The notes: generated by a model from the sequence alone, not told the origin. Numbered from the stretch's first letter, positions 1-18,896 are shown. The stretch: 64,000 nt of DNA from Deltaproteobacteria bacterium (GCA_016234855.1 JACRNO010000009.1:33651-97650); one strand, 5' to 3'. Numbers and translations are program-made.

Positions 1-153
1 CACGTGGTGGAGGGGTACAGGCTCACGATGCTCGCGGGCAGGCCGCCGGTCGTCAACGGACTTATTTATCTTGCGGTGGTCTCGGTGGTGACATTCGCCA
101 TGGGCGGCATATTTTTCAGGAGACTCAAGCCGGGGTTTGCAGAGGTGCTTTAA
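1..153 (+). CDS. wzm: ABC transporter permease Wzm (3' end only, partial)
   Basis: Frame 1 reads HVVEGYRLTMLAGRPP...GGIFFRRLKPGFAEVL*, the typical Wzm C-terminus; directly upstream of the Wzt ATPase. Confidence 0.8.
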   Translation, partial: HVVEGYRLTMLAGRPPVVNGLIYLAVVSVVTFAMGGIFFRRLKPGFAEVL

Positions 154-175
154 GCCGCGCTTAAAGAGACAGGAC

Positions 176-1498
176 ATGGAAATAGCAATCAGCGTAAAAA
201 ATATCAGCAAGAGCTACAGGCTCTATAAGGCCCCACCCGACAAGCTCAAGGAGATACTTAATCCGTTCGGCAGGAAGTATCACCAAGAGTTCCGCGCGCT
301 TAACGATGTTTCGTTCGAAATCAAAAAAGGCGAGAGCGTTGGCATAGTGGGCCGTAACGGCAGCGGCAAGTCGACGCTTTTAAAACTGATTTGCGGGGTT
401 CTTCAGCCAACGTCAGGAGAGGTCTCCGTGCAGGGCAGGGTCTCCGCGCTCCTTGAGCTTGGCGCCGGGTTCAACCAGGAATATACCGGCAGGCAGAACG
501 TCTATATGAACGGGGCGTTGAGGGGGCTGACAAAGGAGCAGGTCGATGAAAAACTAGAATCGATTCTCGATTTCGCCGATATCGGGGATTTTATCGACCA
601 GTCCGTCAAAACCTATTCAAGCGGGATGTACGTCAGGCTTGCCTTCTCATGCGCCGTAAATGTCGAGCCGGACATCTTGATAGTGGACGAGGCGCTTTCG
701 GTAGGGGATATAAGGTTTAAGCATAAGTGTTTCAGAAAGATAGAGAGTTTTAGAGAGGCCGGGAAGACTGTTTTGATGGTCACGCATGACATCGGGAGCG
801 TCAAGAGTTTTTGTGATAATGCCATATGGATAAACAACGGCAAGATTGAGCAAATCGGCAAAGCGGACGCTGTTGTCAGAGATTATTCTTCATTCATGAA
901 TTATGGTCTCGTATCAAAGGGTTCGGTGGCCCTGAAAGATACTAAAGCTCAACGCGGGAATGAAGTGTCCTTAGTTCAACGTGGGAATGAAGCGTCCTTT
1001 GACGCTGACATCCCATGGGAAGAAGTAAGCCATAGTTCTTCCTTTGGGGATGGCGGAGCAATAATCAAAAGGGTGGCCTTCTACGGCAAGGATGACTTTA
1101 AGAAGATCGCCATCCTTGAAGGCGGCGAGTCTGTGGTATTCTCGCTCGATATTGAAGTAAAAGAAGCGTTAGACATGCCAATTGTCGCTTGCAGATTGGA
1201 TAATAAATACGGTATGCATATTTTCGGGGTAAGCAATCTTACTGTCGGAGAAGAATTAAGGCCATTGAACGCTGGCGAGCGTGTAGTTGTAAATATCGAA
1301 TTTGTATTTCCTAAACTTGGGAATGGTCATTATGTTATTGCCGCTGCGATTGCTAATGGCACCAACCAAGCCCATGTACAACAGCATTTTGTGCATGAGG
1401 CGTATATTGTTCAAGTGATAAATCCATCAGTAGCGGCCAAAATGGGACATTGCATCGTACTCGAACAGACCTGGATATCGCTGATGGATTCAAAATGA
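176..1498 (+). CDS. wzt: Polysaccharide ABC exporter ATPase Wzt with C-terminal carbohydrate-binding domain
   Basis: Walker A GRNGSGKST, signature YSSGMYVRLAF, Walker B LIVDEALSVGD, Wzt_C-like C-terminal region (SFGDGGAII...); start chosen at ATG 176 after AGGA. Confidence 0.92.
   Translation: MEIAISVKNISKSYRLYKAPPDKLKEILNPFGRKYHQEFRALNDVSFEIKKGESVGIVGRNGSGKSTLLKLICGVLQPTSGEVSVQGRVSALLELGAGFNQEYTGRQNVYMNGALRGLTKEQVDEKLESILDFADIGDFIDQSVKTYSSGMYVRLAFSCAVNVEPDILIVDEALSVGDIRFKHKCFRKIESFREAGKTVLMVTHDIGSVKSFCDNAIWINNGKIEQIGKADAVVRDYSSFMNYGLVSKGSVALKDTKAQRGNEVSLVQRGNEASFDADIPWEEVSHSSSFGDGGAIIKRVAFYGKDDFKKIAILEGGESVVFSLDIEVKEALDMPIVACRLDNKYGMHIFGVSNLTVGEELRPLNAGERVVVNIEFVFPKLGNGHYVIAAAIANGTNQAHVQQHFVHEAYIVQVINPSVAAKMGHCIVLEQTWISLMDSK
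949..999 (+). repeat. 27-bp-period tandem duplication in Wzt linker (QRGNEVSLV-QRGNEASF)
   Basis: tcaacgcgggaatgaagtgtcctt (949-972) vs tcaacgtgggaatgaagcgtcctt (976-999), 22/24 identical. Confidence 0.8.
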
Positions 1499-1523
1499 CG
1501 GCAGATAGTAATCGGGTGCGGTA

Positions 1524-2102
1524 ATGGAAGACGGTAAACAAATTAAAACCACTTTGCGCATGCTTCATTCGGATAAGCCCAATATTGTCGTGGGGCGTTA
1601 TACCTACGGCAATCCTCTGCTTCTTACCTGGGCCGAAGATGAAAGGATAACTATCGGCGCATTCTGTTCTTTCGCCAGGGAGACGGCTGTCCTGGGGGGC
1701 GGGGAGCATCGATATGATTGGATTACCACGAGCCCGATCAGAATAATGTTTGACCTGCCTGGCGCAAGAAAAGACGGAATACCTTGCTCTAGAGGAGAAA
1801 CCGTAATTGGCAATGACGTATGGATGGGCTTCAGGTCCATTATATTATCCGGTGTGACCGTCGCGGATGGCGCTGTGATAGGGGCCGGCGCGGTAGTGGC
1901 TAACGACGTTCCGCCATATGCGGTGGTTGCCGGTAATCCTGCCAAGGTCATCAAATACCGTTTCGAAGAAAGCGTACGGAACGACCTTCTGAGCATAAAG
2001 TGGTGGGATTGGCCGATAGAAAAGATCATCGACAGCGTTGATCTCTTATGTTCGAATGACGCTGATGCCGTTAAGAAACTGATGGCTTTAAGTAGGTGTT
2101 GA
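1524..2102 (+). CDS. CatB/Vat-family hexapeptide O-acetyltransferase
   Basis: VGRYTYG, IGAFCSFA, IGNDVWMG, hexapeptide repeats GVTVADGAVIGAGAVVANDVPPYAVVAGNPAKVIKYRF, KWWDW. Confidence 0.88.
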   Translation: MEDGKQIKTTLRMLHSDKPNIVVGRYTYGNPLLLTWAEDERITIGAFCSFARETAVLGGGEHRYDWITTSPIRIMFDLPGARKDGIPCSRGETVIGNDVWMGFRSIILSGVTVADGAVIGAGAVVANDVPPYAVVAGNPAKVIKYRFEESVRNDLLSIKWWDWPIEKIIDSVDLLCSNDADAVKKLMALSRC

Positions 2103-2156
2103 TTGCAGCGAATTCCCATGCCGTCATAACCGTTTAAAAAGCATTTAAGGAAGAAT

Positions 2157-3833
2157 ATGCACCAGAGCTCGTTTGATAAGATGTCGAAATTCCGGGAGAC
2201 ATACCTGGCCGGCCGGGAACGGGAACCGTTGTTGATATTAGATCTCGGGAGCATGGATGTAAACGGCTCATACCGGCCTCTTTTTGTTTCTGATTCATGG
2301 CAGTATAAGGGCATTGACCTGGCGGAAGGAAGAAACGTAGATATCGTCCTTCCTAATCCCTACGACTGGACAGGGATTGAGTCCACCTCGGTTGATGTCG
2401 TGGTATCAGGACAGGCATTCGAGCATATAGAATACTTCTGGCTTACGATGCTTGAGATAGCAAGGGTCTTAAAGCCTGGCGGCTTGTGCTGCATTATCGC
2501 CCCTTCAGGCGGTTTCGAGCACAGGTACCCGGTAGATTGCTGGAGGTTCTATTCCGACGGATTCTCTGCGCTCGGTCGTTTTGCAGGGTTGGAGGTGCTG
2601 GATGCTTATACGCAAAAAGAGAATCTCGGCTACAAGGATGACAGCGATACATGGAAGGATTCGGTAATAATCTGCAGGAAACCGGCCCGCCCGCTCGAAC
2701 AAGCGGGCCTCTCGCAATTCAACAGGGATATCCTGATAGAGGCTTACAAAGTGACGGTTGCCGATGCTGGCCAGCCGTTAAAGGTCGATTTTAATCCTAT
2801 CGAACATCCGCGCTCCTTTTTTGAGGAACCCCAGAAGCTCTCTGACATAGCAAGCTGGCATGAGCACATGCCGTTTGCCTTTTTAGTAATGGATATTCTC
2901 AAGCCGAGGGTTTTTGTGGAGCTTGGCGTCCATAAAGGAGATTCATATCTCGCGTTTTGTCAGGCCGTTAAAAATTTCGGCATTGATGCAAAGTGCCACG
3001 GCGTGGACACCTGGAAAGGCGAGGAGCATGCTGGGTTCTATGACGAGAGCGTTTATAATCAGTTGACAGCTTATCACGACCCGTTATATGGAAATATCTC
3101 AACACTTTTGAAGATGACTTTCGATGAGGCGCTTGCAAAATTTGCCGATAAGAGCATCGACCTGTTACATATCGACGGTCTGCACAGTTACCAGGCCGTT
3201 AAGCACGATTTTGAAGCATGGCTTCCGAAGATGAGCGATTCAGGCGTAATTCTTTTTCATGATACGAATGTCCGCGAACGCGACTTCGGGGTCTGGAGGC
3301 TCTGGTATGAGATAAAAGATAAGTATCCGAGCATGGAATTCAAGCATGGGCATGGGCTTGGCGTGCTTGCGGTTGGGCGAAGCCTGCCGCAGGATTTCGT
3401 TGATATGCTTGCCGCCGGCAAGGTCGATAACTCGGCGCTATTGCACTTGATGTATTTGCTGGGTTCGCGTAACTCTCTTAAGTATACTGTTGCCTCCAGG
3501 GACAGGGAGTTAGTCTCTTTCAGGGAAAAGTCAACTGCGCTTGAGAATAGATTGAAGGCCGAGGAAGAGAAGGCAAGGAACAAGGACAAGGAGATAGCCT
3601 CTTTTAGAGAAAAGTCCAATATGCTTGAGAGCCAACTTAAGGCATCGGAAGAGAAGATTAAGGCAGGGGAAGAGAGGACAAGGAACAAGGACAGGGAAAT
3701 AGCATCGTTAAGAGAAAAGTCCAAAGCGCTCGAAAATAGGCTGACTGATATCCTGCATAGCAAGAGTTGGCAGGTTACCGTTCCGCTAAGGGCCGTTGGC
3801 GGGCTTTTTACGAGGAAGCCGGCAAAACGCTGA
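2157..3833 (+). CDS. Two-domain SAM methyltransferase with coiled coil and C-terminal SxSWxVTxPLR helix (WbdD/WsaE-like chain terminator candidate)
   Basis: Domain 1 LDLGSMDVNG...QAFEH...RVLKPGG; domain 2 FVELGVHKGDS, DTWKGEEHAG, DLLHIDGLHSY, ILFHD (Methyltransf_24-like); heptad repeats; SKSWQVTVPLR. Confidence 0.8.
   Translation: MHQSSFDKMSKFRETYLAGREREPLLILDLGSMDVNGSYRPLFVSDSWQYKGIDLAEGRNVDIVLPNPYDWTGIESTSVDVVVSGQAFEHIEYFWLTMLEIARVLKPGGLCCIIAPSGGFEHRYPVDCWRFYSDGFSALGRFAGLEVLDAYTQKENLGYKDDSDTWKDSVIICRKPARPLEQAGLSQFNRDILIEAYKVTVADAGQPLKVDFNPIEHPRSFFEEPQKLSDIASWHEHMPFAFLVMDILKPRVFVELGVHKGDSYLAFCQAVKNFGIDAKCHGVDTWKGEEHAGFYDESVYNQLTAYHDPLYGNISTLLKMTFDEALAKFADKSIDLLHIDGLHSYQAVKHDFEAWLPKMSDSGVILFHDTNVRERDFGVWRLWYEIKDKYPSMEFKHGHGLGVLAVGRSLPQDFVDMLAAGKVDNSALLHLMYLLGSRNSLKYTVASRDRELVSFREKSTALENRLKAEEEKARNKDKEIASFREKSNMLESQLKASEEKIKAGEERTRNKDREIASLREKSKALENRLTDILHSKSWQVTVPLRAVGGLFTRKPAKR
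3498..3743 (+). repeat. Three coiled-coil repeats (28- and 35-aa spacing)
   Basis: RDRELVSFREKSTALENRL / KDKEIASFREKSNMLESQL / KDREIASLREKSKALENRL. Confidence 0.85.
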
Positions 3834-3966
3834 ATATTTTGGACACGGTCGTTTCCCACGTCATGCCGTGCCTTCGTTTGAGCAAACGCGGCGAATTTTG
3901 CCGCCGGGCCGTTTGCAAAAAAAAATGTGATATGACGCAGCCGGATAGATAAGGAGCTTGTAGGCA

Positions 3967-6900
3967 ATGAAGTCGATTTTGCGCAACGTGATGGGCATAT
4001 TCAAAACCTATGACTTCAGTCAGGCCATCCCTAATATCAGGAGGTACGGCCTTGGCGCGTTTTTGAGGAATACCGCGTATGAACTGAGGAGAAAGGAGGC
4101 GCCAGGTTACGCGGCAAGACAGCCTGAAAGGTTGAGGCCGGAGCCGCCGGTGTCTGCGTCTGTTGAGTTTGTCGCGGATAGTGAGTCCGGATATGTGTTC
4201 GGGGAATTATCGGAAAGAATTGCAGAAGAGCGCGCAAAGGTACTCGGCGGCATCAATCCCAAGCCTAAGGACCTTATAACAGTCAATGAATCCGAGCTCG
4301 TTTCCGTCGCTGGAAGTATCCGTTTTAAGGATGTGAACGAGCCGCTCGTATCCATAATCATTCCGGCGATGAACGATGCAAGGCTTACCGTTGAATGTCT
4401 CCTCTCGGTCGAAAAATTCACAAAAACCGTTCCTTATGAAGTGATTGTCGTTGATGATGGCTCTTCAGACCGCACCGGCGATATCATTTCAAGGATTAAG
4501 AATATCACCTGCACAAGAAATCCGGGGCTCATTGGCTATGCGCGCTCCTGCAACAAGGGCGCTGATATTGCAAAGGGAAAGTATCTTGTCTTTCTGAACA
4601 GCCGCATGCAGGTGACGCAGGGCTGGCTCACGGAGCTTGTCGGCACATTTGAAGGACGCTCCTCGGTCGGGGCGGCGGGGGCGAAGATAGTTAATCCTAA
4701 CGGCAGGCTGCAGGAGGTTGCGGTCGTCATAAACCACGACCGCACGATGCAGCCCGTCGGCAGGATGGATGACCCCGATCTGCCGAGATACAGTTATGTC
4801 AGAGAGGTGGACTTTTGCTCAGGAGCTTGTCTTGCCGTGGAGGCGGAGCAGTTTCGCGCCGTCGGCGGCTTTGCAGGCCGTTTTGCGCCTGGTTATCTGG
4901 AGGACGCCGATTTGCAAATGAGGTTGAGAGAAAAGGGGTTGCGCATATTCAGCAACCCGGGTTCCGTAGTAATACATAATATCGCCGCCGCGTCCAGCGG
5001 GACGGATGAGCCATCGAGCGCTCCGGATACTTCGCTGAAACTTTCCGTAAAATGGCACAAGCAGGTTGATGAACTGAATAAAATCCGCCTGATAGCCTTA
5101 TATCTTCCCCAATTCCATCCGATACCGGAAAATGACCGTTGGTGGGGCAGGGGCTTTACCGAATGGCGCAATGTGGCCCGCGCGCAGCCGGTTTATGAAG
5201 GGCACTATCAGCCGCACTTGCCCGCGGACCTGGGTTTTTACGACCTTCGCGTCCCGGAGGTCATGGAAGAGCAGGCCGCGTTGGCCAAAAGATACGGTCT
5301 CCACGGCTTTTGTTTTTATTATTACTGGTTTGCCGGCAAACGTCTGTTAGAGATGCCGTTGGAAAGGATGCTCGAGACAGGCAGGCCCGACATCCCCTTT
5401 TGTCTGTGCTGGGCTAACGAGAATTGGACGCGCAGGTGGGACGGGAGCGAGCAGGAAATTCTCATGAAGCAGGAGCATTCCGAGAAACACGACCACGACG
5501 TCATAATGGACGTTGGTCGTTACCTGCGCCATAAAAATTACATCAAGGTAAACGGCAAACCCGCCTTCCTCGTTTATCGCATAGGCCTCTTCCCGGATAT
5601 CAAACGGACGACCGATATCTGGCGTGATGTCTGCCGCAGAGAGGGCATCGGTGAAATATATCTTGTGATGGTGGAGTCTTTCGAGCACTCCACCGCTGGA
5701 GCGGACCCGTCGCAGTACGGCTTCGATGCTTCCATGGAATTTCCGCCGCATCAGATACCTGCGGTGACAGTCAAGCCGGGCAAGATAATTAATCCGAATT
5801 TTACCGGAGTAATCTACGATTATCGCGATGTCGCTTTGAAGTATATGAGCAAGAAGGCCCCTGGCCATAAGCGGTTTCGCGGCGTGATAATGTCATGGGA
5901 CAATACTGCCCGCAGGCCTAATAATTCTCACATCTTCGCGCACTCCTCGCCTGAGGTCTATCAGGAATGGCTGGAAGGGGCTATTGCGCATACGCGGGAA
6001 CAGAACAGCGCGGAAGAGCGCATCGTTTTCATAAACGCGTGGAACGAATGGGCTGAAGGCGCTCATCTGGAGCCTGACCAGCGTTTCGGGCACGGGTATC
6101 TGAAGGCGACGAACAACGCCCTTTCCAGATATTCGCCCAAGCCCTTGATAATCGTGGTCACGCATGACGCTCATTTTCATGGGGCGCAACTGCTGGCGCT
6201 GAAAATCGTAGAGGCCTTATCAATATCTCTCGGTTGCGAGGTAGTCACTCTGTTGGCCGGCCCCGGTGTTCTGGAAGGGGAATTTGCAAGATATTCAACC
6301 ACGTTTAAGATCTATTCCATGACGGATGGAGAAAAGTCGGATTGCATCAAGGAGCTTTACCTTAAAGGTGTTAGAGAGGCTATTTGCAATACGAGCGTCG
6401 TGGGCGATATCACCGAACTGCTTGCGTCAGAAGGGTTCGAGACGGTGAGCCTTGTCCATGAATTAACGGATTACATAACGGCCAACGGGCTTGAAGGTTC
6501 GCTGAGGAAGGAATTTCAATATTCCAAAAAGGTTATCTTTCCAGCCGGTTATTGCAAGAAAGCCTTCATGGCAAAATTCGATCTGGATTACAATAAGGCG
6601 CTTGTCAGGCCGCAAGGCATCTATAACAAGAATCGTTATCTGTCCCGCAGAGACGAGGCACGCGCGATCGTGAGAAAAAGGCTCAACCTGCCTGCAAGCG
6701 CGAAGATAGTCCTTAATATCGCTTTTGGTGACAGCAGGAAAGGCCTGGATATCTTTGTGAAGACCGGTCTTGAATTGATTGAAAGGTTTGAGAACGTGTA
6801 TTTTGTTTGGATAGGGCATTATGATGAGAGGCTTTTTAACAGCGTATCCGGTTTGATCAGCAAGCACGGGAGGCAGAGGCACTTCTTATTCCCCGGTCTG

Positions 6901-8160
6901 CAAAAGGAAATTGACCTGTACTATTCCGGCTCCGACGTCTTCTTCCTCTCATCGAGGGAGGATCCCTTCCCAGCGGTCGTGCTGGATGCGATGAACGCGG
7001 GCCTGCCGGTTGTGGGTTTTGAAGGCGCTGGAGGATTTTGTGAGATTCTTCAAAATCAAAACGGCGTTACGGTCCCTGCATTTGACGAGGCCGCAGCGGC
7101 GAATGCCATTGAAAAACTTCTGAGCGACGCGGATTATCGCGCTTTGATATCCTCGAACGCGGTCAATGCCGTTGCGAGAGATTACGGCTTTAACGAATAC
7201 GTCTCTTTCTTATTGGGTACGCTTCGCGAAAAAAAAAAGATATCCGTAATCATACCGAGTTATAATTACGAACGATATATAGAAGCAAGGTTGAATACCG
7301 TAATCAACCAGACATACAAACCTTATGAGATCATATTTCTTGACGACGCTTCGACGGATAACAGCCTGGAGCGGGCGAGAAGGGTGCTTGAGCGGTCGGA
7401 CGTGCCTTTCAGGATTATAGAATCTACGGGCGGCAATAGCGGTTGTTACGCCCAGTGGCTCAAGGGCATACGCGCCGCCGGCGGAGAGTTGATATGGATT
7501 GCCGAGTCGGACGATTTGTGCGAGTTGGATTTCCTGGAGAAGATGGCGGGGGCGTTTAACGATTCTGACGCCGTGCTGGCGTATTCGCAGTCGCAGGTCA
7601 TAGACGAGAACTCCAATAAGCTCGATGTTACGTATGTGAAGTATACGAACGATATCTCGGAATCGAAATGGAGGTCCAGTTATGTCGAGGACGGCGGAAA
7701 GGAGATAGCAACCGCTCTTGCCATAAAGAATACAATCCCGAACGTCAGCGCGGTCCTTATGCGGAAAGATATCCTCGACAAGGTCGGGCCTGACCTGCTG
7801 AAGTTCAAGACAAGCGGCGATTGGTTCGTTTATGTATCGATGCTGAAGCATGGAAAGGTATATTTCAATTCCGCGGTTTTAAACTATCACAGAAGGCACT
7901 CTTCCAGTATAATCCACAGGAATATCAAGAATTGGGACCTTGTGATGGAGAATATAACGATTCTTGAAGGCGTGCTCTCTGAGTTTCGGTTGCCGCGGGA
8001 GTCGTTTGAGAAGGCCATTAAAAATATTGAGTATGTCTATGGCTTGATGGGCACGGATGCCCGCTCTATCCTCGAGGACCCTGTTATCAAGGATAGGGTG
8101 AAAGGGCTTTATAATATGTATGATGAGGCGAAAAAACGTATGCCGGGCCGCGGCGAGTAG
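3967..8160 (+). CDS. Multidomain glycosyltransferase: GT2 + WbsX/GH99-like + GT4 + GT2
   Basis: VSIIIPA...VIVVDDGSSD; LIALYLPQFHPIPENDRWWGRGFTEW...INAWNEWAEGAHLEPD; SSREDPFPAVVLDAMNAGLPVV; ISVIIPSYNY...FLDDASTD...IAESDD. Confidence 0.88.
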   Translation: MKSILRNVMGIFKTYDFSQAIPNIRRYGLGAFLRNTAYELRRKEAPGYAARQPERLRPEPPVSASVEFVADSESGYVFGELSERIAEERAKVLGGINPKPKDLITVNESELVSVAGSIRFKDVNEPLVSIIIPAMNDARLTVECLLSVEKFTKTVPYEVIVVDDGSSDRTGDIISRIKNITCTRNPGLIGYARSCNKGADIAKGKYLVFLNSRMQVTQGWLTELVGTFEGRSSVGAAGAKIVNPNGRLQEVAVVINHDRTMQPVGRMDDPDLPRYSYVREVDFCSGACLAVEAEQFRAVGGFAGRFAPGYLEDADLQMRLREKGLRIFSNPGSVVIHNIAAASSGTDEPSSAPDTSLKLSVKWHKQVDELNKIRLIALYLPQFHPIPENDRWWGRGFTEWRNVARAQPVYEGHYQPHLPADLGFYDLRVPEVMEEQAALAKRYGLHGFCFYYYWFAGKRLLEMPLERMLETGRPDIPFCLCWANENWTRRWDGSEQEILMKQEHSEKHDHDVIMDVGRYLRHKNYIKVNGKPAFLVYRIGLFPDIKRTTDIWRDVCRREGIGEIYLVMVESFEHSTAGADPSQYGFDASMEFPPHQIPAVTVKPGKIINPNFTGVIYDYRDVALKYMSKKAPGHKRFRGVIMSWDNTARRPNNSHIFAHSSPEVYQEWLEGAIAHTREQNSAEERIVFINAWNEWAEGAHLEPDQRFGHGYLKATNNALSRYSPKPLIIVVTHDAHFHGAQLLALKIVEALSISLGCEVVTLLAGPGVLEGEFARYSTTFKIYSMTDGEKSDCIKELYLKGVREAICNTSVVGDITELLASEGFETVSLVHELTDYITANGLEGSLRKEFQYSKKVIFPAGYCKKAFMAKFDLDYNKALVRPQGIYNKNRYLSRRDEARAIVRKRLNLPASAKIVLNIAFGDSRKGLDIFVKTGLELIERFENVYFVWIGHYDERLFNSVSGLISKHGRQRHFLFPGLQKEIDLYYSGSDVFFLSSREDPFPAVVLDAMNAGLPVVGFEGAGGFCEILQNQNGVTVPAFDEAAAANAIEKLLSDADYRALISSNAVNAVARDYGFNEYVSFLLGTLREKKKISVIIPSYNYERYIEARLNTVINQTYKPYEIIFLDDASTDNSLERARRVLERSDVPFRIIESTGGNSGCYAQWLKGIRAAGGELIWIAESDDLCELDFLEKMAGAFNDSDAVLAYSQSQVIDENSNKLDVTYVKYTNDISESKWRSSYVEDGGKEIATALAIKNTIPNVSAVLMRKDILDKVGPDLLKFKTSGDWFVYVSMLKHGKVYFNSAVLNYHRRHSSSIIHRNIKNWDLVMENITILEGVLSEFRLPRESFEKAIKNIEYVYGLMGTDARSILEDPVIKDRVKGLYNMYDEAKKRMPGRGE

Positions 8161-8202
8161 CATGATCGTTATCGTTACGCATAATATTATTCGGGTGTCT
8201 AT

Positions 8203-9129
8203 ATGAAGGGTCTGATTTTGGGAGGCGGAGGCTTTATCGGCTCGCACATATGCGACGCGCTTGTCGCCGAAGGCTGGGAAGTGGGGGTCTTTGAGCGTCC
8301 GTTCAGGCTCAGCGACAACGTCGCGCATTTGAAGGGCCGCATCTCGTGGTTCGAGGGTGATTTCTCGAACAGCAGCGATATCGCCTCGGCGCTCGAGGGC
8401 GTAGACGTCGTTTTTCATCTGATAAGCACCACGATACCGAAGACCTCGAATGAGAACCCGCTCTACGATCTCACGTCGAACGTATGCGCGACGCTCTCGT
8501 TCCTGAACGAGGCGGTCAGGGCCGGGGTAACGAAGGTAGTATTCATGTCTTCAGGCGGCACCGTATATGGGATACCTGCGCGGATTCCCATACCGGAGAG
8601 CCATCCGACCGAGCCGGTTTGCGCGTACGGGATACACAAACTGGCCATAGAAAAGTATCTGGCCCTGTATAGCAGGAACTACGGGCTCGATTACGCGGTC
8701 ATAAGGCTGTCGAACCCCTACGGGCCGAGGATGAACCCGTTGTCTGCCCAAGGCGCCATACCGGTCTTTATGTACCGGGCTTTGAAGGGGCAAACCATAG
8801 AGATATGGGGCGACGGCTCGATAGTGCGCGATTATCTGTATATAACGGACGTGGCGCGGGCGGTATGCGCGCTTGCCACGTATTCGGGCGGTGAAAAGAT
8901 ATTCAATATTGGCAGCGGCGTCGGCATGTCCTTGAATGACGTGCTCAAGGGGATAGAGGATGTGATAGGCGAGAAGCTCGATATCCGGTACACCGAAAGC
9001 CGCAAATTCGACGTTCCGGCAAACGTGCTTGATATTACGAGAGCCATGAACGAGATTGCATGGACTCCACAGATAGCCTTCAAGGAAGGCTTGAGAAGGA
9101 CGTGTGATTTCCTGAAGGCTCAGCCATAG
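8203..9129 (+). CDS. NAD-dependent epimerase/dehydratase (extended SDR)
   Basis: LILGGGGFIGSH, SSGGTVYG, YGIHK (YxxxK), RLSNPYG, IWGDGSIVRDYLY. Confidence 0.9.
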   Translation: MKGLILGGGGFIGSHICDALVAEGWEVGVFERPFRLSDNVAHLKGRISWFEGDFSNSSDIASALEGVDVVFHLISTTIPKTSNENPLYDLTSNVCATLSFLNEAVRAGVTKVVFMSSGGTVYGIPARIPIPESHPTEPVCAYGIHKLAIEKYLALYSRNYGLDYAVIRLSNPYGPRMNPLSAQGAIPVFMYRALKGQTIEIWGDGSIVRDYLYITDVARAVCALATYSGGEKIFNIGSGVGMSLNDVLKGIEDVIGEKLDIRYTESRKFDVPANVLDITRAMNEIAWTPQIAFKEGLRRTCDFLKAQP

Positions 9130-9260
9130 CGTTAAGAAGGAAGAAAAGCTGTATCGCTGGTGTGGGAATATCAGCCAGCCAGGCGTAAGCGCTTGAAGCA
9201 ATTCGCCGACGGGTTATCGGTAATTAGCTGTACGATGACAAGGCATGAAAGGAGAAGGAT

Positions 9261-10103
9261 GTGTCTAACAGAGACGTTATAGCCCATTTGTTGAGGCGGC
9301 CGCTGGCCTGGGCCAGGAGGCTGGAGATGTTTGTGCCGCTGGGGTTGCGTCAGGCTGGTAAAGGCAAGACGTCACAAAAAGATGGAATCAAGGCAGAGCC
9401 GTCTCTGAAGACCAATCCGGGTTTTTGTCCGATATGTGAGAAAGAGACCGAGTTCGTAGAAAGACATGAATGGTTGCGAGACCATTATCTTTGCGCAAGA
9501 TGCAAGTCGATACCGAGAAATAGGGCGCTTATCCATGTGCTCGGCATGATATTTCCGGATTGGAGAGACGCGAAAATCCATGAATCGTCGCCGAGCGGCC
9601 CTGCTTCGGCCAAGCTTCAAAGAGAATGCAAAGATTACACGCCGCCGCATTTCTGGCCGAACGTTAAACCCGGTGATTCTAAATACGGCATACGCTGCGA
9701 GAACCTGGAGCAGATGACCTTTGCCGACAATACCTTTGACCTGATGATTACCCAGGACGTTATGGAGCATATCCTTAACCCCGTAAAGTCGTTCTCCGAT
9801 ATTGCAAGGATCTTGAAGCCTGGCGGCGCTCATGTCTTTACCGTGCCGTATTACTATTGGAAGCCTACCCTCATAAGGGCGGTTGAGACGCCTGACGGTA
9901 TAAAATATCTTGAAGAGAAGCAATTTCACGGAAATCCGGTGGACAAGGAAGGCTCGCTCGTCGTGACTGAATGGGGCCCGGATTTTGTGGACAGGATCTA
10001 CCGGGAGAGCAAGATGACGACAGCCATTTATCACATAAAAGACCGCAGCCTCGGCATTGACGGAAAGTTTCTTGAGGTTTTTGTGAGCAGGAAGCCGTTA
10101 TAA
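9261..10103 (+). CDS. Class I SAM-dependent methyltransferase with N-terminal CxxC...CxxC
   Basis: CPICE...CARCKSIPRNR, ENLEQMTFADNTFDLMITQDVMEH, RILKPGGAHVFTVP; GTG start after AGGAG. Confidence 0.8.
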   Translation: MSNRDVIAHLLRRPLAWARRLEMFVPLGLRQAGKGKTSQKDGIKAEPSLKTNPGFCPICEKETEFVERHEWLRDHYLCARCKSIPRNRALIHVLGMIFPDWRDAKIHESSPSGPASAKLQRECKDYTPPHFWPNVKPGDSKYGIRCENLEQMTFADNTFDLMITQDVMEHILNPVKSFSDIARILKPGGAHVFTVPYYYWKPTLIRAVETPDGIKYLEEKQFHGNPVDKEGSLVVTEWGPDFVDRIYRESKMTTAIYHIKDRSLGIDGKFLEVFVSRKPL

Positions 10104-10167
10104 CGCGGTTGCGGCGGATTTAGTATCTTGTCCAACGTTATGAGTAAGAAAAATCCCGGAGGCAGCT

Positions 10168-11063
10168 ATGAGAGGCGATTTTCAAAACATATTAGATGAG
10201 ATAAAGGCTGGGCATAAGGAAGGCTCGAACATTAAAGAGCTTTTTCACAAGACAAGCGATGAGTTCTGGTTTTGGGCTCATACTGAAGGCTATCGCAACA
10301 ATCAATGGCTCCGCGAGATTCTGCCCGGTCTGCCTGATGAGCAGCTTCAGAGCAATATACGGGGGCGAGCGGCGACAGGGCGCTCGAAAAGGCATTTGCC
10401 ATCTATTCTCTTTTTAAAAAGAATGCCATTGATATTCAGGGCGCTTTGCAAGACGGCGTGCTCGACTTTGGTTGCGGCTGGGGCAGGATACTCAGGTTTT
10501 GGCTGAAGGATTTTGAGGCTGATCATGTGTGGGGCGTAGACGTTCAGAAAGAGGCCGTAGATATATGTGAGGGTTTGGCGTTCCCTTGTAACCTTAAACA
10601 AATTCCGTCAGGCCCGCCAGTTGACCTGCCGGCTGATAAATTTGGCCTGATATATGCGTTTTCAGTTTTTTCACATCTTTCGCCTGAAGCGGCGGACGCG
10701 TGGGTAGCGGAATTCCATCGTATTCTAAAGCCTGGCGGAACAGCTATGCTCTCGACGCGTCCACGTTCTTTTATCGAGATGGTAGGAAATGCAAGGAAGA
10801 TGAACCCTGCGCCGGAATGGACAAAACGCATTGTTCATCACTTCCAGGATGAAAACAAATGGCTTTCCCGTTACAATGCAGGAGAGTTCTGTTTTGAGCC
10901 GGTTGGTTTAGGCGGAGACCCCAGCAAGTCATTCTACGGTGAAGCCGTCATTCCAAAGGATTACGTTGTCAAGCATTGGGCAGGGAGTAAATTCCGGCTT
11001 TGCGCATTTCTTGCCGGAGACCGGCTTGTAGAACAAAACATAATTATACTCCAAAAAAAATAG
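10168..11063 (+). pseudogene. Class I SAM methyltransferase split by a 1-nt deletion near 10354-10365
   Basis: Frame 1 ...LPGLPDEQLQSN continues sensibly in frame 3 (YT)GASGDRALEKAFAIYSLFKK...VLDFGCGWGRILRF...YAFSVFSHL...RILKPGG; frame 3 has a TGA at 10338 so it cannot extend to the 10168 start. Confidence 0.8.
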
Positions 11064-11079
11064 GGCTTCGGGGGTAATA

Positions 11080-12093
11080 ATGGACACACCGCTTCACGGA
11101 CAAGAAGAAAAACCAGATCGCCATATCGACGGGCCCATAATCGTATACCAGATGGGCAAGGTCGGTTCGAGGAGCGTATTCGAGACGCTTGAGAAACTGA
11201 ACCTCGGCATTCCCGTTTATCATTGTCATGTTCTGCATGACCTGGATAAGATAGCGGAACAGCTAAAAAAGCAATTTGATAACCCGTTTGATTCATTGGC
11301 GGTAGTAAGACAAGGCAAAGACTTGAGGAAATTGATAGATGAGGCCCCTGCCAAGCCCTGGCATGTGGTATCTCTCGTCCGTGACCCGATTGCGCAGACC
11401 ATATCGAGGTTTTTTCAGAGCATAGAGGAGGTTATCCCGAATGCCGGACGAAGATTCAAGGACGGCGCGCTTAACGTGGAGGACCTTTTCAGCGCCTTTG
11501 AGAAAAAGTGGATTCTCAATGACCCGGCCCTTATCTGGTTTGACAATCAGTTCAAGCCTGTCTTTGATATAGATGTATACGAGAGACCGTTCCCGTGCGC
11601 AAAAGGCTATGACATATTCAGGAAAGGCCGTTTTTCTTTGTTGTTATTCAGGCTTGAAGACCTCGACGGGTGCGCGCCGCAGGCCTTTGAGGAGTTTTTC
11701 GGCTTGGCGGACTTCAAGTTGATGAAGGCAAACGAGGCGGCCAATAAATGGTACCAGGGGCTGTATAAGGAATTCATCTCGAAGATAGACCTGTCGAAAG
11801 ATTATCTGGACAAGGTATATGGCTCCAAGTTCAGCAGGCATTTTTATACAAAGCTGGAGATCAACGCTTTCCGGGCAAAGTGGACGCGCAAGCCGGCGGT
11901 TGGCGCATCTTCAGCAGGCGTTAACAAGGCTGCGGATTTGAAGAGCGGGGGACTGGAAAGGAAGGACTCTGAGATTGCAGGATTAAGGAAGATGATAGAT
12001 GCGAAGGAGCGCGAGATAGCCGCGTTGCGCAACAGCTTGAGCTGGAAGGTCACGGCTCCGCTGAGGGCCGTCGGGGGGATATTCATGAAGTGA
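11080..12093 (+). CDS. NKWYS-type putative capsular polysaccharide synthesis protein (sulfotransferase-like) with short coiled coil and SxSWKVTAPLR tail
   Basis: YQMGKVGSRS, SLVRDPIAQTISRFFQ, ANEAANKWYQGLY, YGSKFSRHFYT; tail LRNSLSWKVTAPLRAVGG. Confidence 0.72.
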   Translation: MDTPLHGQEEKPDRHIDGPIIVYQMGKVGSRSVFETLEKLNLGIPVYHCHVLHDLDKIAEQLKKQFDNPFDSLAVVRQGKDLRKLIDEAPAKPWHVVSLVRDPIAQTISRFFQSIEEVIPNAGRRFKDGALNVEDLFSAFEKKWILNDPALIWFDNQFKPVFDIDVYERPFPCAKGYDIFRKGRFSLLLFRLEDLDGCAPQAFEEFFGLADFKLMKANEAANKWYQGLYKEFISKIDLSKDYLDKVYGSKFSRHFYTKLEINAFRAKWTRKPAVGASSAGVNKAADLKSGGLERKDSEIAGLRKMIDAKEREIAALRNSLSWKVTAPLRAVGGIFMK

Positions 12094-12229
12094 AAGCGGC
12101 GCTAGTCTCCGGACTTCTTTCGCACCCGGTCTCGTTTGAGATAGATTTGAGAGAATGGATCTTTTGTGGCGCGTGAAGGAGTCGCAGTCCAACCAACCCG
12201 AAGGCGCATTTTTTTGGCGCAAAGCCTTT

Positions 12230-13135
12230 ATGTCCACTTCAACATACATTATCGTCCTTAACTGGAACGGTGTAGATGACACCATTGAGTGCATACAATC
12301 CCTAAAAAAGATGACGTATCGGGATTATGCGATTCTCCTCGTCGATAACGCTTCGACGGACGGCTCGGTCGCTGTTTTAAGCAAAAAGTTCCCGGAAATA
12401 AAGATTATCGAGGCCCATAAAAATCTCGGGTTTGCGGGAGGCGCCAATCTTGGCATGAGGCACGCCTTGAGCGCGGGCGCGCAATATCTCATACTCCTGA
12501 ATAACGATACGGTCGTTGCCCCTGATTTTGCCGGTGAACTCGTGAAAGCCGCTGAGAACGATAAAAAAGCGGGAATACTCTCTTCCAAGGTATATTTTTA
12601 TGACAGGCCGGGCGTGCTCTGGTATGCCGGAGCAAGTTTTAACAGGTGGCTTGGATGGGGCAGGCACAGGGGTTTTGGTTCAATGGATATCGGACAATTT
12701 GACAGGCTTGAACCGACCGGCCGGCCTTGCGGCTGTGCGCTATTGGCAACAAGGGAATTCTGCGAGAAGGCCGGACTTCTTGAAGAGGAATACTTTTGTT
12801 ACTGCGAGGATATGGAGTGGGGGATGAGGGCAGGGAATCTTGGGTATGCGACGCTCTTTGTTCCATCTTCAAAGGTATGGCATAAGGTCTCAAGGTCGAC
12901 AGGCGGCCCTGCAACCGCAAAGGCGCTCTATTATTCCGTGAGAAATACCTTAAAGTGTCTTGATACTGACGCTCCGCTGCCGTTTGGCCTGCGTCATATC
13001 AGGATATTGCTTGTGTTGGTAATTAGCATTTTAAGTCTTTTTACGATGAATATCCCGAAGGTCCTGGGGCTTAAACGAATTTTTCATGGCGTCATGGATT
13101 ATTTAGAAGGTAAGTTTGGCGAACTCGTAGAATAA
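12230..13135 (+). CDS. GT2 glycosyltransferase (rhamnosyltransferase-like)
   Basis: IIVLNWNG, LVDNASTDGS, NLGFAGGANLG, LLNNDT, YCEDMEWGMR, VWHKVSRS; start chosen at MSTSTY. Confidence 0.88.
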   Translation: MSTSTYIIVLNWNGVDDTIECIQSLKKMTYRDYAILLVDNASTDGSVAVLSKKFPEIKIIEAHKNLGFAGGANLGMRHALSAGAQYLILLNNDTVVAPDFAGELVKAAENDKKAGILSSKVYFYDRPGVLWYAGASFNRWLGWGRHRGFGSMDIGQFDRLEPTGRPCGCALLATREFCEKAGLLEEEYFCYCEDMEWGMRAGNLGYATLFVPSSKVWHKVSRSTGGPATAKALYYSVRNTLKCLDTDAPLPFGLRHIRILLVLVISILSLFTMNIPKVLGLKRIFHGVMDYLEGKFGELVE

Positions 13136-13150
13136 TTGAATCTCTGCTCA

Positions 13151-13281
13151 ATGAAGATACTTGTGGCGGGGCCGGGTTTATCGGCGCGCACGTCTGCAAG
13201 GCGCTTGCCGCGCGGGGTTACGAGCCTGTGGTCTTCGATAACCTTGTTTTCGGTCCCGCTTGTGTGCAGGCGTTCTTATGA
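13151..13281 (+). pseudogene. galE: Frameshifted, truncated 5' remnant of UDP-glucose 4-epimerase
   Basis: ATG AAG ATA CTT GTG then shifted frame GAGFIGAHVCKALAARGYEPVVFDNL, stop at 13279-13281; matches the GalE N-terminus. Confidence 0.75.
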
Positions 13282-13336
13282 AACGAGTTGCGCTTTTTCC
13301 GGCGTTGCGGCATATATGCGGGCCGTAAAAGTTTAA

Positions 13337-14338
<1,002 letters not shown>

Positions 14339-14436
14339 ACGGCAGGAAGCTGGCGGAAAGTGTTTGAACGCGCCTTCTGAGAAAGAGAGGCTCTAACCAA
14401 TGAGTCATATAAATTGTTCGATAGAAGGATAGCGTC

Positions 14437-15390
14437 TTGCGAAAGGTCCTGATTACAGGCATAGCCGGTTTTGTGGGCTCGCATCTCGCCGAGCGCCTTT
14501 CAGGCTCGTTTGAGGTCTGGGGCACGCACATAGACGAGAACAACGGCAACCTCGACGGCATAGGAGGGCTCAACCTGATACGTTGCGACCTGCTTGACGC
14601 TAAGGCGGTAACCGAGGCCGTCTCCCGCGTCAGGCCCGCGGCAATCGTCCATCTCGCCGCCCTTTCCACGCCCGCGTATTCGTTTGAAAACCCGGCTGAG
14701 ACGCTCAGGAACAATATCTTCTCCACGCTCAATATATTCGAGGCAACGGCAAAGGCCTGCCATGAGGCCGTGATACTCAATATCGGTTCCGGCGACGAGT
14801 ACGGAGACGTGCGCGAGGCAGACCTGCCGCTCAAGGAGACGGCGCAGTTGAGGCCGTTGAACCCTTATTCCGTAAGCAAGGTCACGACAGACCTGCTTGG
14901 CTTCCAGTACTGGAAGAGCAAGGGGCTTAATATCGTCCGCTGCCGCCCGTTCAACCACATCGGGCCGCGCCAGGCCCCGCACTTCGTGGCCCCTGCCTTT
15001 GCAAGGCAGATAGCAGAGTGCGAGGCGGGTCTCAAGGATGAGAAGATCATAACGGTCGGCAATCTCGAGTCTTCCAAGGACTTTCTCGACGTCAGGGACG
15101 TTACGTCCGCCTATGAGCTCTTGATTGAGAAGGGCGAGTATGGCGAGGTCTATAATATCTGCTCCGGCCGGGTCGTAAAGATACGCTGGATGCTCGAGAC
15201 CCTGCTCTCGTTCTCAAGCGAGAGCATAGAGGTCGTGGAGGATGCGGCAAAGATGCGTCCCACGGATTCGCTTGCCATATACGGCGACGCATCTAAACTT
15301 CGCGCCCTGGGCTGGGAGCCGCATTATCCGCTTAGTGAGGGGCTCAGGGCGCTGCTGGATTTCTGGAGGCTGAAGACTCGGCAGATATGA
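14437..15390 (+). CDS. rmd: GDP-4-dehydro-6-deoxy-D-mannose reductase (GDP-D-rhamnose synthesis)
   Basis: VLITGIAGFVGSHL, IGSGDEYG, PLNPYSVSK, RPFNHIGPRQ...FARQIAECEAG, GNLESSKDFLDVRDV; adjacent to gmd. Confidence 0.85.
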   Translation: MRKVLITGIAGFVGSHLAERLSGSFEVWGTHIDENNGNLDGIGGLNLIRCDLLDAKAVTEAVSRVRPAAIVHLAALSTPAYSFENPAETLRNNIFSTLNIFEATAKACHEAVILNIGSGDEYGDVREADLPLKETAQLRPLNPYSVSKVTTDLLGFQYWKSKGLNIVRCRPFNHIGPRQAPHFVAPAFARQIAECEAGLKDEKIITVGNLESSKDFLDVRDVTSAYELLIEKGEYGEVYNICSGRVVKIRWMLETLLSFSSESIEVVEDAAKMRPTDSLAIYGDASKLRALGWEPHYPLSEGLRALLDFWRLKTRQI

Positions 15391-15476
15391 GTTATCACTT
15401 GTCCGTTATCGGCAATCAGCAAAGGTTTTCATCTTAATGTTTTCGTTCACCGATAACCTAGTTAAGCCTGCGGGGA

Positions 15477-16619
15477 GTGGTCTTGAGGATAGGCATAAAC
15501 GCGTTGTACCTTATCCCTGGTAAGGTGGGCGGGAGCGAGACGTATATAAGGAACCTCGCGCGGGGCCTTGCGCAGGCAGGCTCAGGCCATGAATTCTTCA
15601 TCTTCATAAACAAGGAGAGCGCCGGGGTCTTTGAGACGGAGGCGCCCGGCATGCAGGTGGTGCAATGTAACGTGGCCGCCGCATCAAGGCCGGCAAGGAT
15701 CATCTGGGAGCAGTTCGTCCTCCCGTTGCAGTTACGGCGTCTCAAAATAGATGTCCTTCTTTCAGCCGGCATGACCACGCCGTTTGTCAGCGGCGTGCCG
15801 TCCGTGGTTGTCATATACGACCTTCAGCACAGGGCGTTGCCGCATAATTTCGCGTGGTGGTACCTCCAGTTTCTCCGCTCAATCATCTACCTCAGCGCAA
15901 AGAGCGCCGACAGCGTTATAACCATATCCAATAAATCCAGGGACGAAATCTCGCATCTGTATGATATCGCGCCGGAGCGCATAGCCGTGACCCATCTTGC
16001 GGCTGACGAAAGGCTTTTTTACAGGAGGTCTGCATCCGAGGTCGCGGCCGCGCGGCAAAGATACGGCCTGCCCGAGCGTTTCATATTGTATGCGGCCTCA
16101 AGCCTGCCGCACAAGAACTATGAGCGGCTGCTTGCGGCCTTTAAGAGAGTATCTGTTGAGGATAGGGGCGTGACGCTACTTCTTGCCGGCGCAAGGTCAT
16201 ACGGCATGGAGGCGATAGAGGAGGGCATACGCAGGCTCGGTCTCTCGGACAGGGTTGTTTTTTCCGGATGGCTGCCGCATGAAGACCTTCCTGCTGTTTA
16301 CTCAGCGTCTGAGCTTCTGGTCTTTCCGTCGCTTTATGAAGGCTTCGGCATGCCGGTGCTTGAGGCGTTCGCATGCGGGGTTCCGGTGGTCTGCTCGAAT
16401 ATCGCGCCGTTGACCGAGGTCGCCTCGGACGCCGCCGTCTACGTCGACCCGCTTGACGAGGCGGATATCGCAAAGGGAATTTTATCGGTTTTGAGCTACG
16501 CAGGGCTTAGAGACAGGCTCATCAGGGACGGCCTCCGGCGCGTTGCGGCGTTCAGTTGGGCCAAGACCGCGGCTCAGACGCTTGAGGTCCTTGAAAGGCA
16601 TGCGGGGGCGCGATTATGA
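15477..16619 (+). CDS. GT4 glycosyltransferase (MtfB/WbpY-like)
   Basis: GGSETY, PHKNYERL, FPSLYEGFGMPVLEAFACGVPVVCSN. Confidence 0.9.
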   Translation: MVLRIGINALYLIPGKVGGSETYIRNLARGLAQAGSGHEFFIFINKESAGVFETEAPGMQVVQCNVAAASRPARIIWEQFVLPLQLRRLKIDVLLSAGMTTPFVSGVPSVVVIYDLQHRALPHNFAWWYLQFLRSIIYLSAKSADSVITISNKSRDEISHLYDIAPERIAVTHLAADERLFYRRSASEVAAARQRYGLPERFILYAASSLPHKNYERLLAAFKRVSVEDRGVTLLLAGARSYGMEAIEEGIRRLGLSDRVVFSGWLPHEDLPAVYSASELLVFPSLYEGFGMPVLEAFACGVPVVCSNIAPLTEVASDAAVYVDPLDEADIAKGILSVLSYAGLRDRLIRDGLRRVAAFSWAKTAAQTLEVLERHAGARL

Positions 16620-17407
16620 GTATGCCCCGCATCTCCGTCATAACGCCTTCCTTTAATCAGGGCAGGTTCATAGAGCGGACTATCGAGAGCGTCCTCGGGC
16701 AGGGCTATCCGAACCTTGAGTATATCGTCGTAGACGGCGGCTCTACGGACGAGACCGTCTCGATATTGCGGCGTTATGAACCCAGGCTCGCTTGGACTTC
16801 CGAAAAGGACAAGGGCCAGTCCGACGCAATAAACAAGGGCATCAGCCGGGCTACCGGAGAGATTGTCGCATATATAAACTCGGACGACGTCTATGAGCCG
16901 GGCGCGCTCGAGCGCGTGGCCGCGTACTTTACGGCCAACCCGTCGGTGATGTGGCTTACCGGACGCTGCCGCATCATAGACGAGGAAGACCGCGAGATGC
17001 GCGGCGTTATAACCGCGTACAAGAATTTCTTGTTAGACCGTTATAGTTATAATATACTTCTGGTGACTAATTGTATCTCTCAGCCTGCGACATTTATGCG
17101 GGCCGGGCTCTTTAAAGAGTATGGTTTATTCGACGTAAATCAGCACCGCGTTATGGATTACGAATATTGGCTCCGTATCGGCGCCCGGCACGAACCGGGC
17201 ATATTGAAAGAGTATCTGGCGGCCTTTCGCGTCTACCGCGCCTCCAAGACATCGAGCGCGTTTAAAGACACGTTCAAAGAGGAGTTGGAAGTCGCGAGAA
17301 TATATTCTCATTCGTGTCTCTTAAACGGACTTCACCGGTTGAGTAATATCGGCATCTGCGCCGCATATACGGCGCTCTCTCTGACCACGGGACGCCGAAC
17401 GAAATGA
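16616..17407 (+). CDS. GT2 glycosyltransferase (WfgS/WcaE-like)
   Basis: ISVITPSFNQGRFIERTIESV, VVDGGSTD, GQSDAINKG, YINSDD, MDYEYWLR. Confidence 0.9.
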   Translation: MSMPRISVITPSFNQGRFIERTIESVLGQGYPNLEYIVVDGGSTDETVSILRRYEPRLAWTSEKDKGQSDAINKGISRATGEIVAYINSDDVYEPGALERVAAYFTANPSVMWLTGRCRIIDEEDREMRGVITAYKNFLLDRYSYNILLVTNCISQPATFMRAGLFKEYGLFDVNQHRVMDYEYWLRIGARHEPGILKEYLAAFRVYRASKTSSAFKDTFKEELEVARIYSHSCLLNGLHRLSNIGICAAYTALSLTTGRRTK

Positions 17408-18873: not shown

Positions 18874-18896
18874 CAAGGTAAAGAGCGAGGTGAGTT

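Follow-up and report, generated by a model that had tools for sequence, protein, structure and literature searches.

In the glycan-assembly pathway that depends on an ATP-binding cassette (ABC) transporter, chains are assembled and capped in the cytoplasm and are exported only once the carbohydrate-binding module of Wzt recognizes the cap (PMC11231755, PMC3482155); these modules are cap-specific (PMC11231755). WbdD of Escherichia coli O9/O9a and Klebsiella pneumoniae O3, a kinase-methyltransferase, is both terminator and ruler in this pathway. It is a homotrimer (PMC3482155) whose stalk length sets the length of the chain (PMC11231755, PMC5082667), and whose C-terminal region is reported to contain an amphipathic helix for membrane localization and to recruit WbdA, the polymerase (PMC3447403, PMC3482155, PMC11231755, PMC6286764). 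A construct of residues 1-600 is reported to be soluble on purification (PMC3447403, PMC3482155, PMC11231755), and the C-terminal end is so far structurally uncharacterized (PMC6286764). In K. pneumoniae O7 ORF6 and O12 WbbB, a modifying head and a coiled coil are followed by glycosyltransferase modules in one polypeptide. A few enterobacterial proteins form the basis of the molecular-ruler model for O-antigen length. Here we describe a locus within a 64,000-nucleotide stretch of the genome of a Deltaproteobacteria bacterium (GCA_016234855.1 JACRNO010000009.1:33651-97650; hereafter the window, with positions counted from its first letter). The locus is a WbdD-like system with an added short-stalked, sulfotransferase-like enzyme, and it exposes a widespread, unannotated motif at the stalk end.

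Two enzymes of this locus, a dual methyltransferase with a long stalk (P0001) and an NKWYS-family protein with a short one (P0002), were said in an earlier note on this DNA to end alike, and their translations agree: both finish with S-x-S-W-[QK]-V-T-x-P-L-R-A-V-G-G-[LI]-F (P0001, ...ENRLTDILHSKSWQVTVPLRAVGGLFTRKPAKR, also written ...HSKSWQVTVPLRAVGGLFTRKPAKR; P0002, ...EIAALRNSLSWKVTAPLRAVGGIFMK, also ...NSLSWKVTAPLRAVGGIFMK), the true end of P0001 lying seven residues beyond the string quoted in that note. The two C-termini align by BLASTP with E=3e-10 across 78 residues, and 22 of the last 42 residues (52%) are identical. When all six frames of the 64-kb window were scanned, the pattern W.[LIVM]T.P[LIVM]R was found at two sites only, one in each tail. 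The encoding DNA had also been called similar, which is true only weakly: identity over the last 126 nucleotides is 58% and the codons are randomized, those at identical degenerate residues being the same in 10 cases and different in 11. Because synonymous sites are randomized while the residues are kept, the likeness of the tails is old and held by selection at the protein level. The same randomized sites rule out that the tails arose by recent duplication or gene conversion.

The analogy to WbdD that had been proposed for these tails holds at the sequence level. We built a tail profile (36 columns, from 29 tails) and read WbdD from two E. coli genomes, IAI1 (O8) and HS (O9); the profile matches both proteins. 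In O8 WbdD (425 residues; L084:43456-44733, minus strand), the full motif NSRSWRITQPLRW (in context ...QQMADLHNSRSWRITQPLRWLSLQ..., W311) closes the coil, scoring 28.1 bits (E=5e-11, as a single sequence). In O9 WbdD (708 residues), the coil is closed by half of the motif, SRSWRMTKGYR (...EIEKIHRSRSWRMTKGYRYLG..., W595; 9.3 bits, E=3.6e-5). In each protein, the motif marks the transition from coiled coil to C-terminal region.

The O8 protein is like P0001 in having an N-terminal S-adenosylmethionine (SAM) methyltransferase followed by a coiled coil with this motif at its end, in serving an ABC-transporter-dependent pathway, and in the position of its gene between wzt (with a binding module) and the polymerase gene. 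It differs in having one methyltransferase domain rather than two, and ~105 residues after the motif rather than 13. The window further differs from the O8 system in carrying a second tail-bearing enzyme of another class, and its polymer is probably made from guanosine diphosphate (GDP)-6-deoxyhexose and mannose, whereas O8 is polymannose. O9 WbdD lacks the P-L-R half of the motif and has a kinase in its head and a long C-terminal domain; its stalk measures ~200 Å, compared with our estimates of ~160 Å for P0001 and 48 Å for P0002. A C-terminal domain of ~100 residues is absent from both window enzymes, in which 13 (P0001) and 8 (P0002) residues follow PLR, compared with ~105-110 in WbdD. The order of modules in O7 ORF6 and O12 WbbB also has parallels here: fused homologs of the window polymerase and methyltransferase exist, with the motif between the coil and a family 2 glycosyltransferase (GT2) module. 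Unlike in ORF6 and WbbB, terminator, ruler and polymerase are not joined in a single polypeptide in the window, where they are encoded by separate genes (2157-3833 and 3967-8160) with a 133-nucleotide gap.

AlphaFold2 models of single chains (input alignments of 81 homologs for P0001 and 101 for P0002) place a catalytic head N-terminal to a helical stalk in both enzymes. In P0001 (mean predicted local distance difference test score, pLDDT, of 90), two methyltransferase domains are followed by one uninterrupted predicted helix of 107 residues (427-533, pLDDT >90), then by a break at 534-535 and a short helix over the motif (536-551, pLDDT 59-73). In P0002, a well-folded, sulfotransferase-like head (20-268) leads through a disordered 23-residue linker (269-291) to a predicted 32-residue helix (292-323), with the tail unmodelled at pLDDT below 50. 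Coil lengths of about 80 and 25 residues, as first given for these proteins, were thus fair estimates, the heptad part of P0001 being ~86 residues and the P0002 helix 32. The P0001 stalk consists of three related units starting at residues 448, 476 and 511 (window 3498-3743), whose spacings of 28 and 35 residues are whole heptads, and its DNA contains an 84-nucleotide tandem repeat (3500-3656). The stalk of P0002 equals one such unit, RKDSEIAGLRK... aligning with NKDREIASLREK... of P0001. Four of the five closest homologs of P0001 are only 479-496 residues long with a coil of only ~25 residues, which, together with the tandem repeat, indicates that the P0001 stalk was lengthened by repeat expansion.

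The motif is not confined to this locus. The sequence S-x-S-W-[KR]-h-T-x-P-[LF]-R immediately follows the coiled coil in 25 of the 119 best homologs of P0001, at the C-terminus in some and between the coil and GT2 or family 4 (GT4) modules in others. The 29 tails behind the profile agree completely in W, P and R and almost completely in S, S and T. A search of 1.84 billion representatives with this profile returned 9,829 proteins at E<=1e-3; the motif is present in all 149 of the 149 best matches and lies <=30 residues from the C-terminus in 109 of them, while 75 of the 149 have two or three tandem units of a short coil plus the motif. Domains found on 78 longer matches include GT2, GT4, several methyltransferase families, RgpF, FkbM, WbsX and WsaF. 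A scan of species genomes located the motif in Acidobacteriota, Desulfuromonadales/Geobacter, Bacteroidota, Alpha-, Beta- and Gammaproteobacteria, and also in Actinomycetota, Cyanobacteria, Verrucomicrobiota, Planctomycetota and Clostridia. The residues that close the WbdD stalk therefore belong to a sharply conserved motif found in ~10^4 protein clusters, across many phyla and on glycosyltransferases, methyltransferases and sulfotransferases. It is covered by no Pfam or NCBIfam model, and a search for the motif strings turned up no relevant paper in the literature collection examined.

Some individual proteins show variations on this arrangement. In P0243, P0244 and P0245, two or three tandem units, each made of a short coil, SxSWRxTxPLR and a basic tail, are ~45-60 residues apart. 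A variant motif (HSKAWRLILFLRR) closes an N-terminal coil in P0091, and the NKWYS homolog P0013 has an N-terminal transmembrane helix plus a coil, so that in proteins of the P0013 and P0091 types the stalk joins the opposite end of the enzyme.

Loci with several stalked enzymes are common in our sample of 82, made up of 78 genome loci that are skewed to SLSW[KR][VIL]TAPL tails by a narrow query alignment, three relatives reached through homologs, and the window itself. In 25 of the 82 (~30%), two to six separate tail-bearing open reading frames lie within ±10 kb, with widely different stalk lengths (helix lengths outside the window were estimated by a crude proline/glycine rule). In L007, from a Bacteroidia metagenome-assembled genome, the products of six consecutive genes (8118-19201) each finish with a coiled coil and the motif; they are a GT2, sulfotransferases (Sulfotransfer_2/3/4) and glycosyltransferase-sulfotransferase fusions, with helix estimates from 15 to 87 residues. 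The deltaproteobacterial locus L074 has four tail-bearing genes, three for GT2 enzymes and one without a Pfam match; in the relative L002 the tail is on the dual methyltransferase and on a second methyltransferase, and the syntenic relative L001 keeps both tails together with the same polymerase. Two stalked enzymes per locus is thus a recurrent architecture, for which we found no description in the literature examined. These loci, with two to six stalk lengths each, pose the question of whether stalk length sets chain length only, or also the position of a modification.

Since the tail occurs on a plain GT2 and on several sulfotransferases in one locus, it is not a marker of terminators. The proposal in the earlier note that it is one docking motif of two capping enzymes does not stand in that form, given ~10^4 protein clusters with the motif and its presence at the end of plain GT2 enzymes and sulfotransferases. 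Sequences flanking the motif are more alike within than between loci (downstream, 0.249 versus 0.161; permutation p=0.0005), and the window pair shares 5 of 8 variable residues after PLR, placing it in the top ~2% of 384 tails. A shared partner or mixed bundles would be consistent with this likeness, but so would common descent or a similar composition.

As to what each enzyme does, the window, L002 and L003 share the gene order wzt (encoding the binding module), dual methyltransferase, polymerase, so that the P0001 gene stands beside both wzt and the polymerase gene, as expected for a WbdD-type enzyme. The closest relatives of P0001 (47-60% identity) likewise adjoin wzt with a binding module and precede the polymerase. 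Based on this gene order in the window and its relatives, P0001 is likely to be a WbdD-like chain terminator and ruler. The gene for P0002 does not share this placement; it lies ~3 kb past the polymerase gene, surrounded by genes for methyltransferases and glycosyltransferases.

P0002 matches the Pfam family PF10364 (NKWYS, 'putative capsular polysaccharide synthesis protein'), for which we know of no activity. Its sequence has the motifs of sulfotransferases that depend on 3'-phosphoadenosine-5'-phosphosulfate (PAPS), namely a GKVGS loop (YQMGKVGSRS), an RDPxxxxxS element (LVRDPIAQTIS) and an invariant His, which we take to be the 5'-phosphosulfate loop (xKxGS/T), the 3'-phosphate motif (RxPxxxxxS) and the catalytic His. 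A set of 101 homologs of P0002 shows no variation at G29, S30, H50, R101 and P103, and almost none at K27. Two NKWYS homologs, P0024 and P0073, score above the Sulfotransfer_2 cut-off, and NCBI calls one homolog a sulfotransferase. The best Foldseek matches of P0002, to Teg12, SULT1C3 and HS6ST, are weak (E>=0.016, TM ~0.3). The locus thereby offers the NKWYS family a testable role, that of a glycan sulfotransferase.

Among the 120 best NKWYS homologs, a C-terminal stalk and foot are present only in P0002 and its L001 ortholog, P0005. The locus has only one Wzt carbohydrate-binding module, and tail-bearing enzymes elsewhere are often not terminators; P0002 thus appears more likely to be a chain-decorating enzyme than a second terminator. 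As the order wzt-methyltransferase-polymerase also holds for P0001 alone, one cap and one decorator are favored. L001 also has a radical SAM/SPASM gene and an extra, stalkless gene of the Gal-3-O-sulfotransferase family (L001:14094-14834), a hint that the glycan of this lineage is sulfated.

The composition of the tails suggests how they may act. We compared the 12 residues after PLR with the 12 before the motif in 274 distinct tails: the segment after PLR is net positive in 89% of them, and acidic residues make up 3.9% of it versus 16.8% upstream. Positions +2, +5 and +6 are preferentially hydrophobic, whereas Arg or Lys is favored at +4, +7 and +8, a spacing that gives the pattern of a short cationic amphipathic helix. 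AVGGLFTRK of P0001 and AVGGIFMK of P0002 both match this consensus. The combination of a Trp, a Thr-x-Pro kink and a cationic segment suggests interfacial contact with the membrane, which presumed oligomerization of the stalk would strengthen.

Judged from these sequence features, we give a probability of about one in two to the reading, taken as a whole, that both enzymes end in a stalk foot on the membrane side, with P0001 as terminator and P0002 as decorator. The module would consist of the last stalk heptads, S-x-S-W-[KR]-h-T-x-P-L-R (a Trp, then a proline kink) and 8-12 hydrophobic and basic residues (x-h-G/A-x-h-h-+-+), the latter probably lying on the inner face of the cytoplasmic membrane, and would be shared by WbdD and a vast number of other enzymes of cytoplasmic glycan assembly. 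It would fix both enzymes to the membrane alongside the polymerase, their heads reaching different heights, which, at a rise of 1.5 Å per helical residue, would be ~16 nm for P0001 (107-residue helix) and ~5 nm for P0002 (32-residue helix plus flexible linker). P0001 would act as terminator and ruler, its methyl cap presumably being read by the Wzt carbohydrate-binding module, and P0002 would most likely sulfate the chain near the polymerase or near its reducing end. W, P, R and the basic tail provide a mutable handle on how stalked enzymes attach to the membrane or to each other.

Several observations weigh against this reading. The foot has low AlphaFold2 confidence (59-73 in P0001, <50 in P0002), and no solved structure contains the motif, a sequence search of the PDB having returned designed coiled coils only. 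The motif core (W-x-I-T-A-P-L) alternates hydrophobic and polar residues and would suit a strand as well, and the tandem units suit an interaction module better than a plain membrane foot; together, these two features leave room for a role in protein-protein interaction. The tails are far shorter than the C-terminal region of WbdD, and may be too short to anchor the enzyme or recruit the polymerase. As for P0002, its sulfotransferase fold match is weak (best E=0.016), it reaches no Pfam sulfotransferase model and matches NKWYS only, and a short-stalk enzyme could equally cap short chains.

In a different explanation, along the lines of the earlier note, both enzymes are terminators that dock on one polymerase through their tails, a sulfate or other group capping short chains and a methyl group capping long ones, so that chain lengths are bimodal. 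Both enzymes do carry the WbdD-type stalk-end motif on stalks that differ by ~75-80 residues, the pair is conserved in L001, the residues after PLR are as unusually alike as described above (5/8), and the ruler principle itself is established for WbdD (PMC11231755, PMC5082667). Two caps would, however, have to be served by a single Wzt module of a cap-specific kind (PMC11231755), and a short-stalk terminator, reaching every chain first, would tend to starve the long one. The tail is also found on ordinary GT2 enzymes and on up to five sulfotransferase-domain proteins in one locus, and it recurs only once among the 120 best NKWYS homologs, whereas the dual methyltransferase keeps both its tail and its wzt neighborhood. 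Given these difficulties, we consider two terminators unlikely.

Alternatively, the terminal coil unit plus motif could be a hetero-oligomerization module, by which the enzymes zip their last heptads into a mixed bundle. The product would be a multi-enzyme machine (of up to six enzymes in other loci) in which the heads are stacked mainly to avoid clashes and contact with the membrane is secondary. This would account for the 52% identity of the last 42 residues and the equivalence of the P0002 stalk to one P0001 unit, for tandem units in half of the best matches (75/149), for the presence of several tail-bearing enzymes in many loci, and for the within-locus likeness of flanks (0.249 versus 0.161 downstream, p=0.0005). 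That likeness is explicable by shared ancestry or amino-acid composition, however, and WbdD forms homotrimers (PMC3482155); we consider mixed bundles, too, unlikely. Finally, a functionless resemblance, due to chance or to low-complexity coiled-coil similarity, would fit a BLASTP score that partly reflects coiled-coil composition, but is very hard to reconcile with the invariant W, P and R and nearly invariant S, S and T, 9,829 database matches to the profile, residues kept at randomized synonymous sites, and a pattern seen at two places only in six frames of the window.

If the tails do form a membrane-side foot, the polymerase (P0003), whose N-terminal helix was named in the earlier note as a possible partner of the tails, might carry its own copy of it, which we offer as a lead only. 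The P0003 start, MKSILRNVMGIFKTY, fits the post-motif consensus, with LRNVMGIFK (residues 5-13) resembling PLRAVGG[IL]F, and the six frames of the window contain the pattern LR.[VM].G[IL][FL] only in the two tails and at this N-terminus; L001 keeps the segment as ILRNMMGILK. Somewhat downstream, IRRYGLGAFLRNTAYEL (residues 24-40, window 4036-4086) is similar to an 'LR.EG...' element located after the motif in O8 WbdD (LLRQEGAKVRARRAAKKIL) and in fused relatives, in which coil, motif, basic linker and GT2 are arranged in this order. An hhalign comparison of the P0003 N-terminus with the tails was not significant (probability ~1%, E=0.056), and the tail hidden Markov model scores P0003 at -4.3 bits. 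Neither phmmer with residues 1-62 against 11,683 proteins and open reading frames, nor BLASTP of the N-terminus against post-motif linkers, produced a match.

A more far-reaching idea is that the motif and cationic tail serve as an undescribed, universal 'assembly tag' by which any enzyme that builds or modifies glycans, whether glycosyltransferase, methyltransferase or sulfotransferase, is mounted on a common membrane platform near the polymerase. We regard this generalization as doubtful. Were it true, stalk length would set how far from the membrane each enzyme acts, and multi-stalk loci would write position-specific patterns along the chain; in the locus described here, sulfation would then occur at ~5 nm and methyl capping at ~16 nm, and two size classes of capped chains might result.

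The surrounding genes are listed in Table 1. Positions 1-18873 of the window form a single co-directional glycan-assembly locus, with a layout of the ABC-transporter-dependent type. The cap-reading transporter is represented by the Wzt_C match and by the 3' end of wzm, a gene that we assigned by its position and hydrophobic C-terminus only, and that is immediately 5' of wzt in relatives. The polymerase matches Glyco_tran_WbsX (4e-139), Glycos_transf_2 in two stretches (1.8e-49) and Glycos_transf_1 (6e-23), and its ortholog in L001 is 83% identical. The gmd and rmd-like genes constitute, by their sequence matches, a supply of GDP-6-deoxyhexose.

Table 1. Features of the glycan-assembly locus, in window coordinates.
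Feature	Position	Strand	Basis or remark
wzm 3' end (ABC-2 permease)	1..153	+	Truncated by window edge; open-ended reading frame ending ...FAMGGIFFRRLKPGFAEVL*
wzt, ABC ATPase with C-terminal carbohydrate-binding module	137..1498	+	Pfam ABC_tran 3.1e-25, Wzt_C 6.8e-24 (residues 301-431)
Hexapeptide-repeat O-acetyltransferase	1524..2102	+	Pfam Hexapep; NCBIfam CatB/Vat-like and WbbJ-like matches, all under cut-off
Dual methyltransferase P0001, 558 residues, long stalk	2157..3833	+	Methyltransf_11 2.1e-8, Methyltransf_24 3.4e-27
P0001 stalk helix, residues 427-533 (107 residues)	3435..3755	+	AlphaFold2 single helix, pLDDT >90
P0001 putative foot, SKSWQVTVPLR plus AVGGLFTRKPAKR	3759..3830	+	Translation; 48.1 bits on tail profile
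Four-module polymerase GT2-WbsX-GT4-GT2, P0003, 1397 residues	3967..8160	+	Pfam domains
Polymerase N-terminus LRNVMGIFK (P0003 residues 5-13), tail-like, lead only	3979..4005	+	Pattern match
Short-chain dehydrogenase/reductase (SDR) epimerase/reductase, nucleotide sugar	8203..9129	+	Pfam Epimerase 2.6e-50
Class I SAM methyltransferase	9261..10103	+	Methyltransf_11 5.8e-11
Methyltransferase gene split by frameshift, immediately 5' of NKWYS gene	10168..11063	+	tblastn with P0017
NKWYS sulfotransferase-like enzyme P0002, 337 residues, short stalk	11080..12093	+	Pfam NKWYS 6.6e-28
P0002 stalk helix, residues 292-323 (32 residues)	11953..12048	+	AlphaFold2
P0002 putative foot, SLSWKVTAPLR plus AVGGIFMK	12034..12090	+	Translation; 56.6 bits on tail profile
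GT2 glycosyltransferase, rhamnosyltransferase-like	12155..13135	+	Glycos_transf_2 6.8e-22; TIGR01556 1e-19, under cut-off
gmd and second GDP-sugar SDR (rmd-like)	13373..15390	+	TIGR01472 gmd 3.9e-135, over cut-off; GDP_Man_Dehyd 7e-62 (second gene)
GT4, GT2, manC (GDP-mannose pyrophosphorylase/isomerase)	15477..18873	+	

A frameshift interrupts the methyltransferase gene that lies immediately 5' of the NKWYS gene. A tblastn comparison with P0017, a 588-residue protein in which the same methyltransferase is fused to an NKWYS domain, locates the switch of frame between 10356 and 10374, and one base appears to be missing near 10354-10358. The frameshift may be a sequencing error; the only other copy found (L083) is 100% identical DNA and thus not independent. 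The fusion in P0017 indicates that the split methyltransferase and the NKWYS enzyme probably cooperate.

In the relative L002, a 116-residue protein (L002:12359-12709) has an N-terminal transmembrane helix and a coiled coil of QQEVRQV repeats, an arrangement of the kind seen at the N-terminus of P0013. The G+C content of the glycan locus in the window (1-19337) is 0.49-0.52, compared with ~0.60 in the remainder (20000-64000), a difference that suggests horizontal acquisition of the locus.

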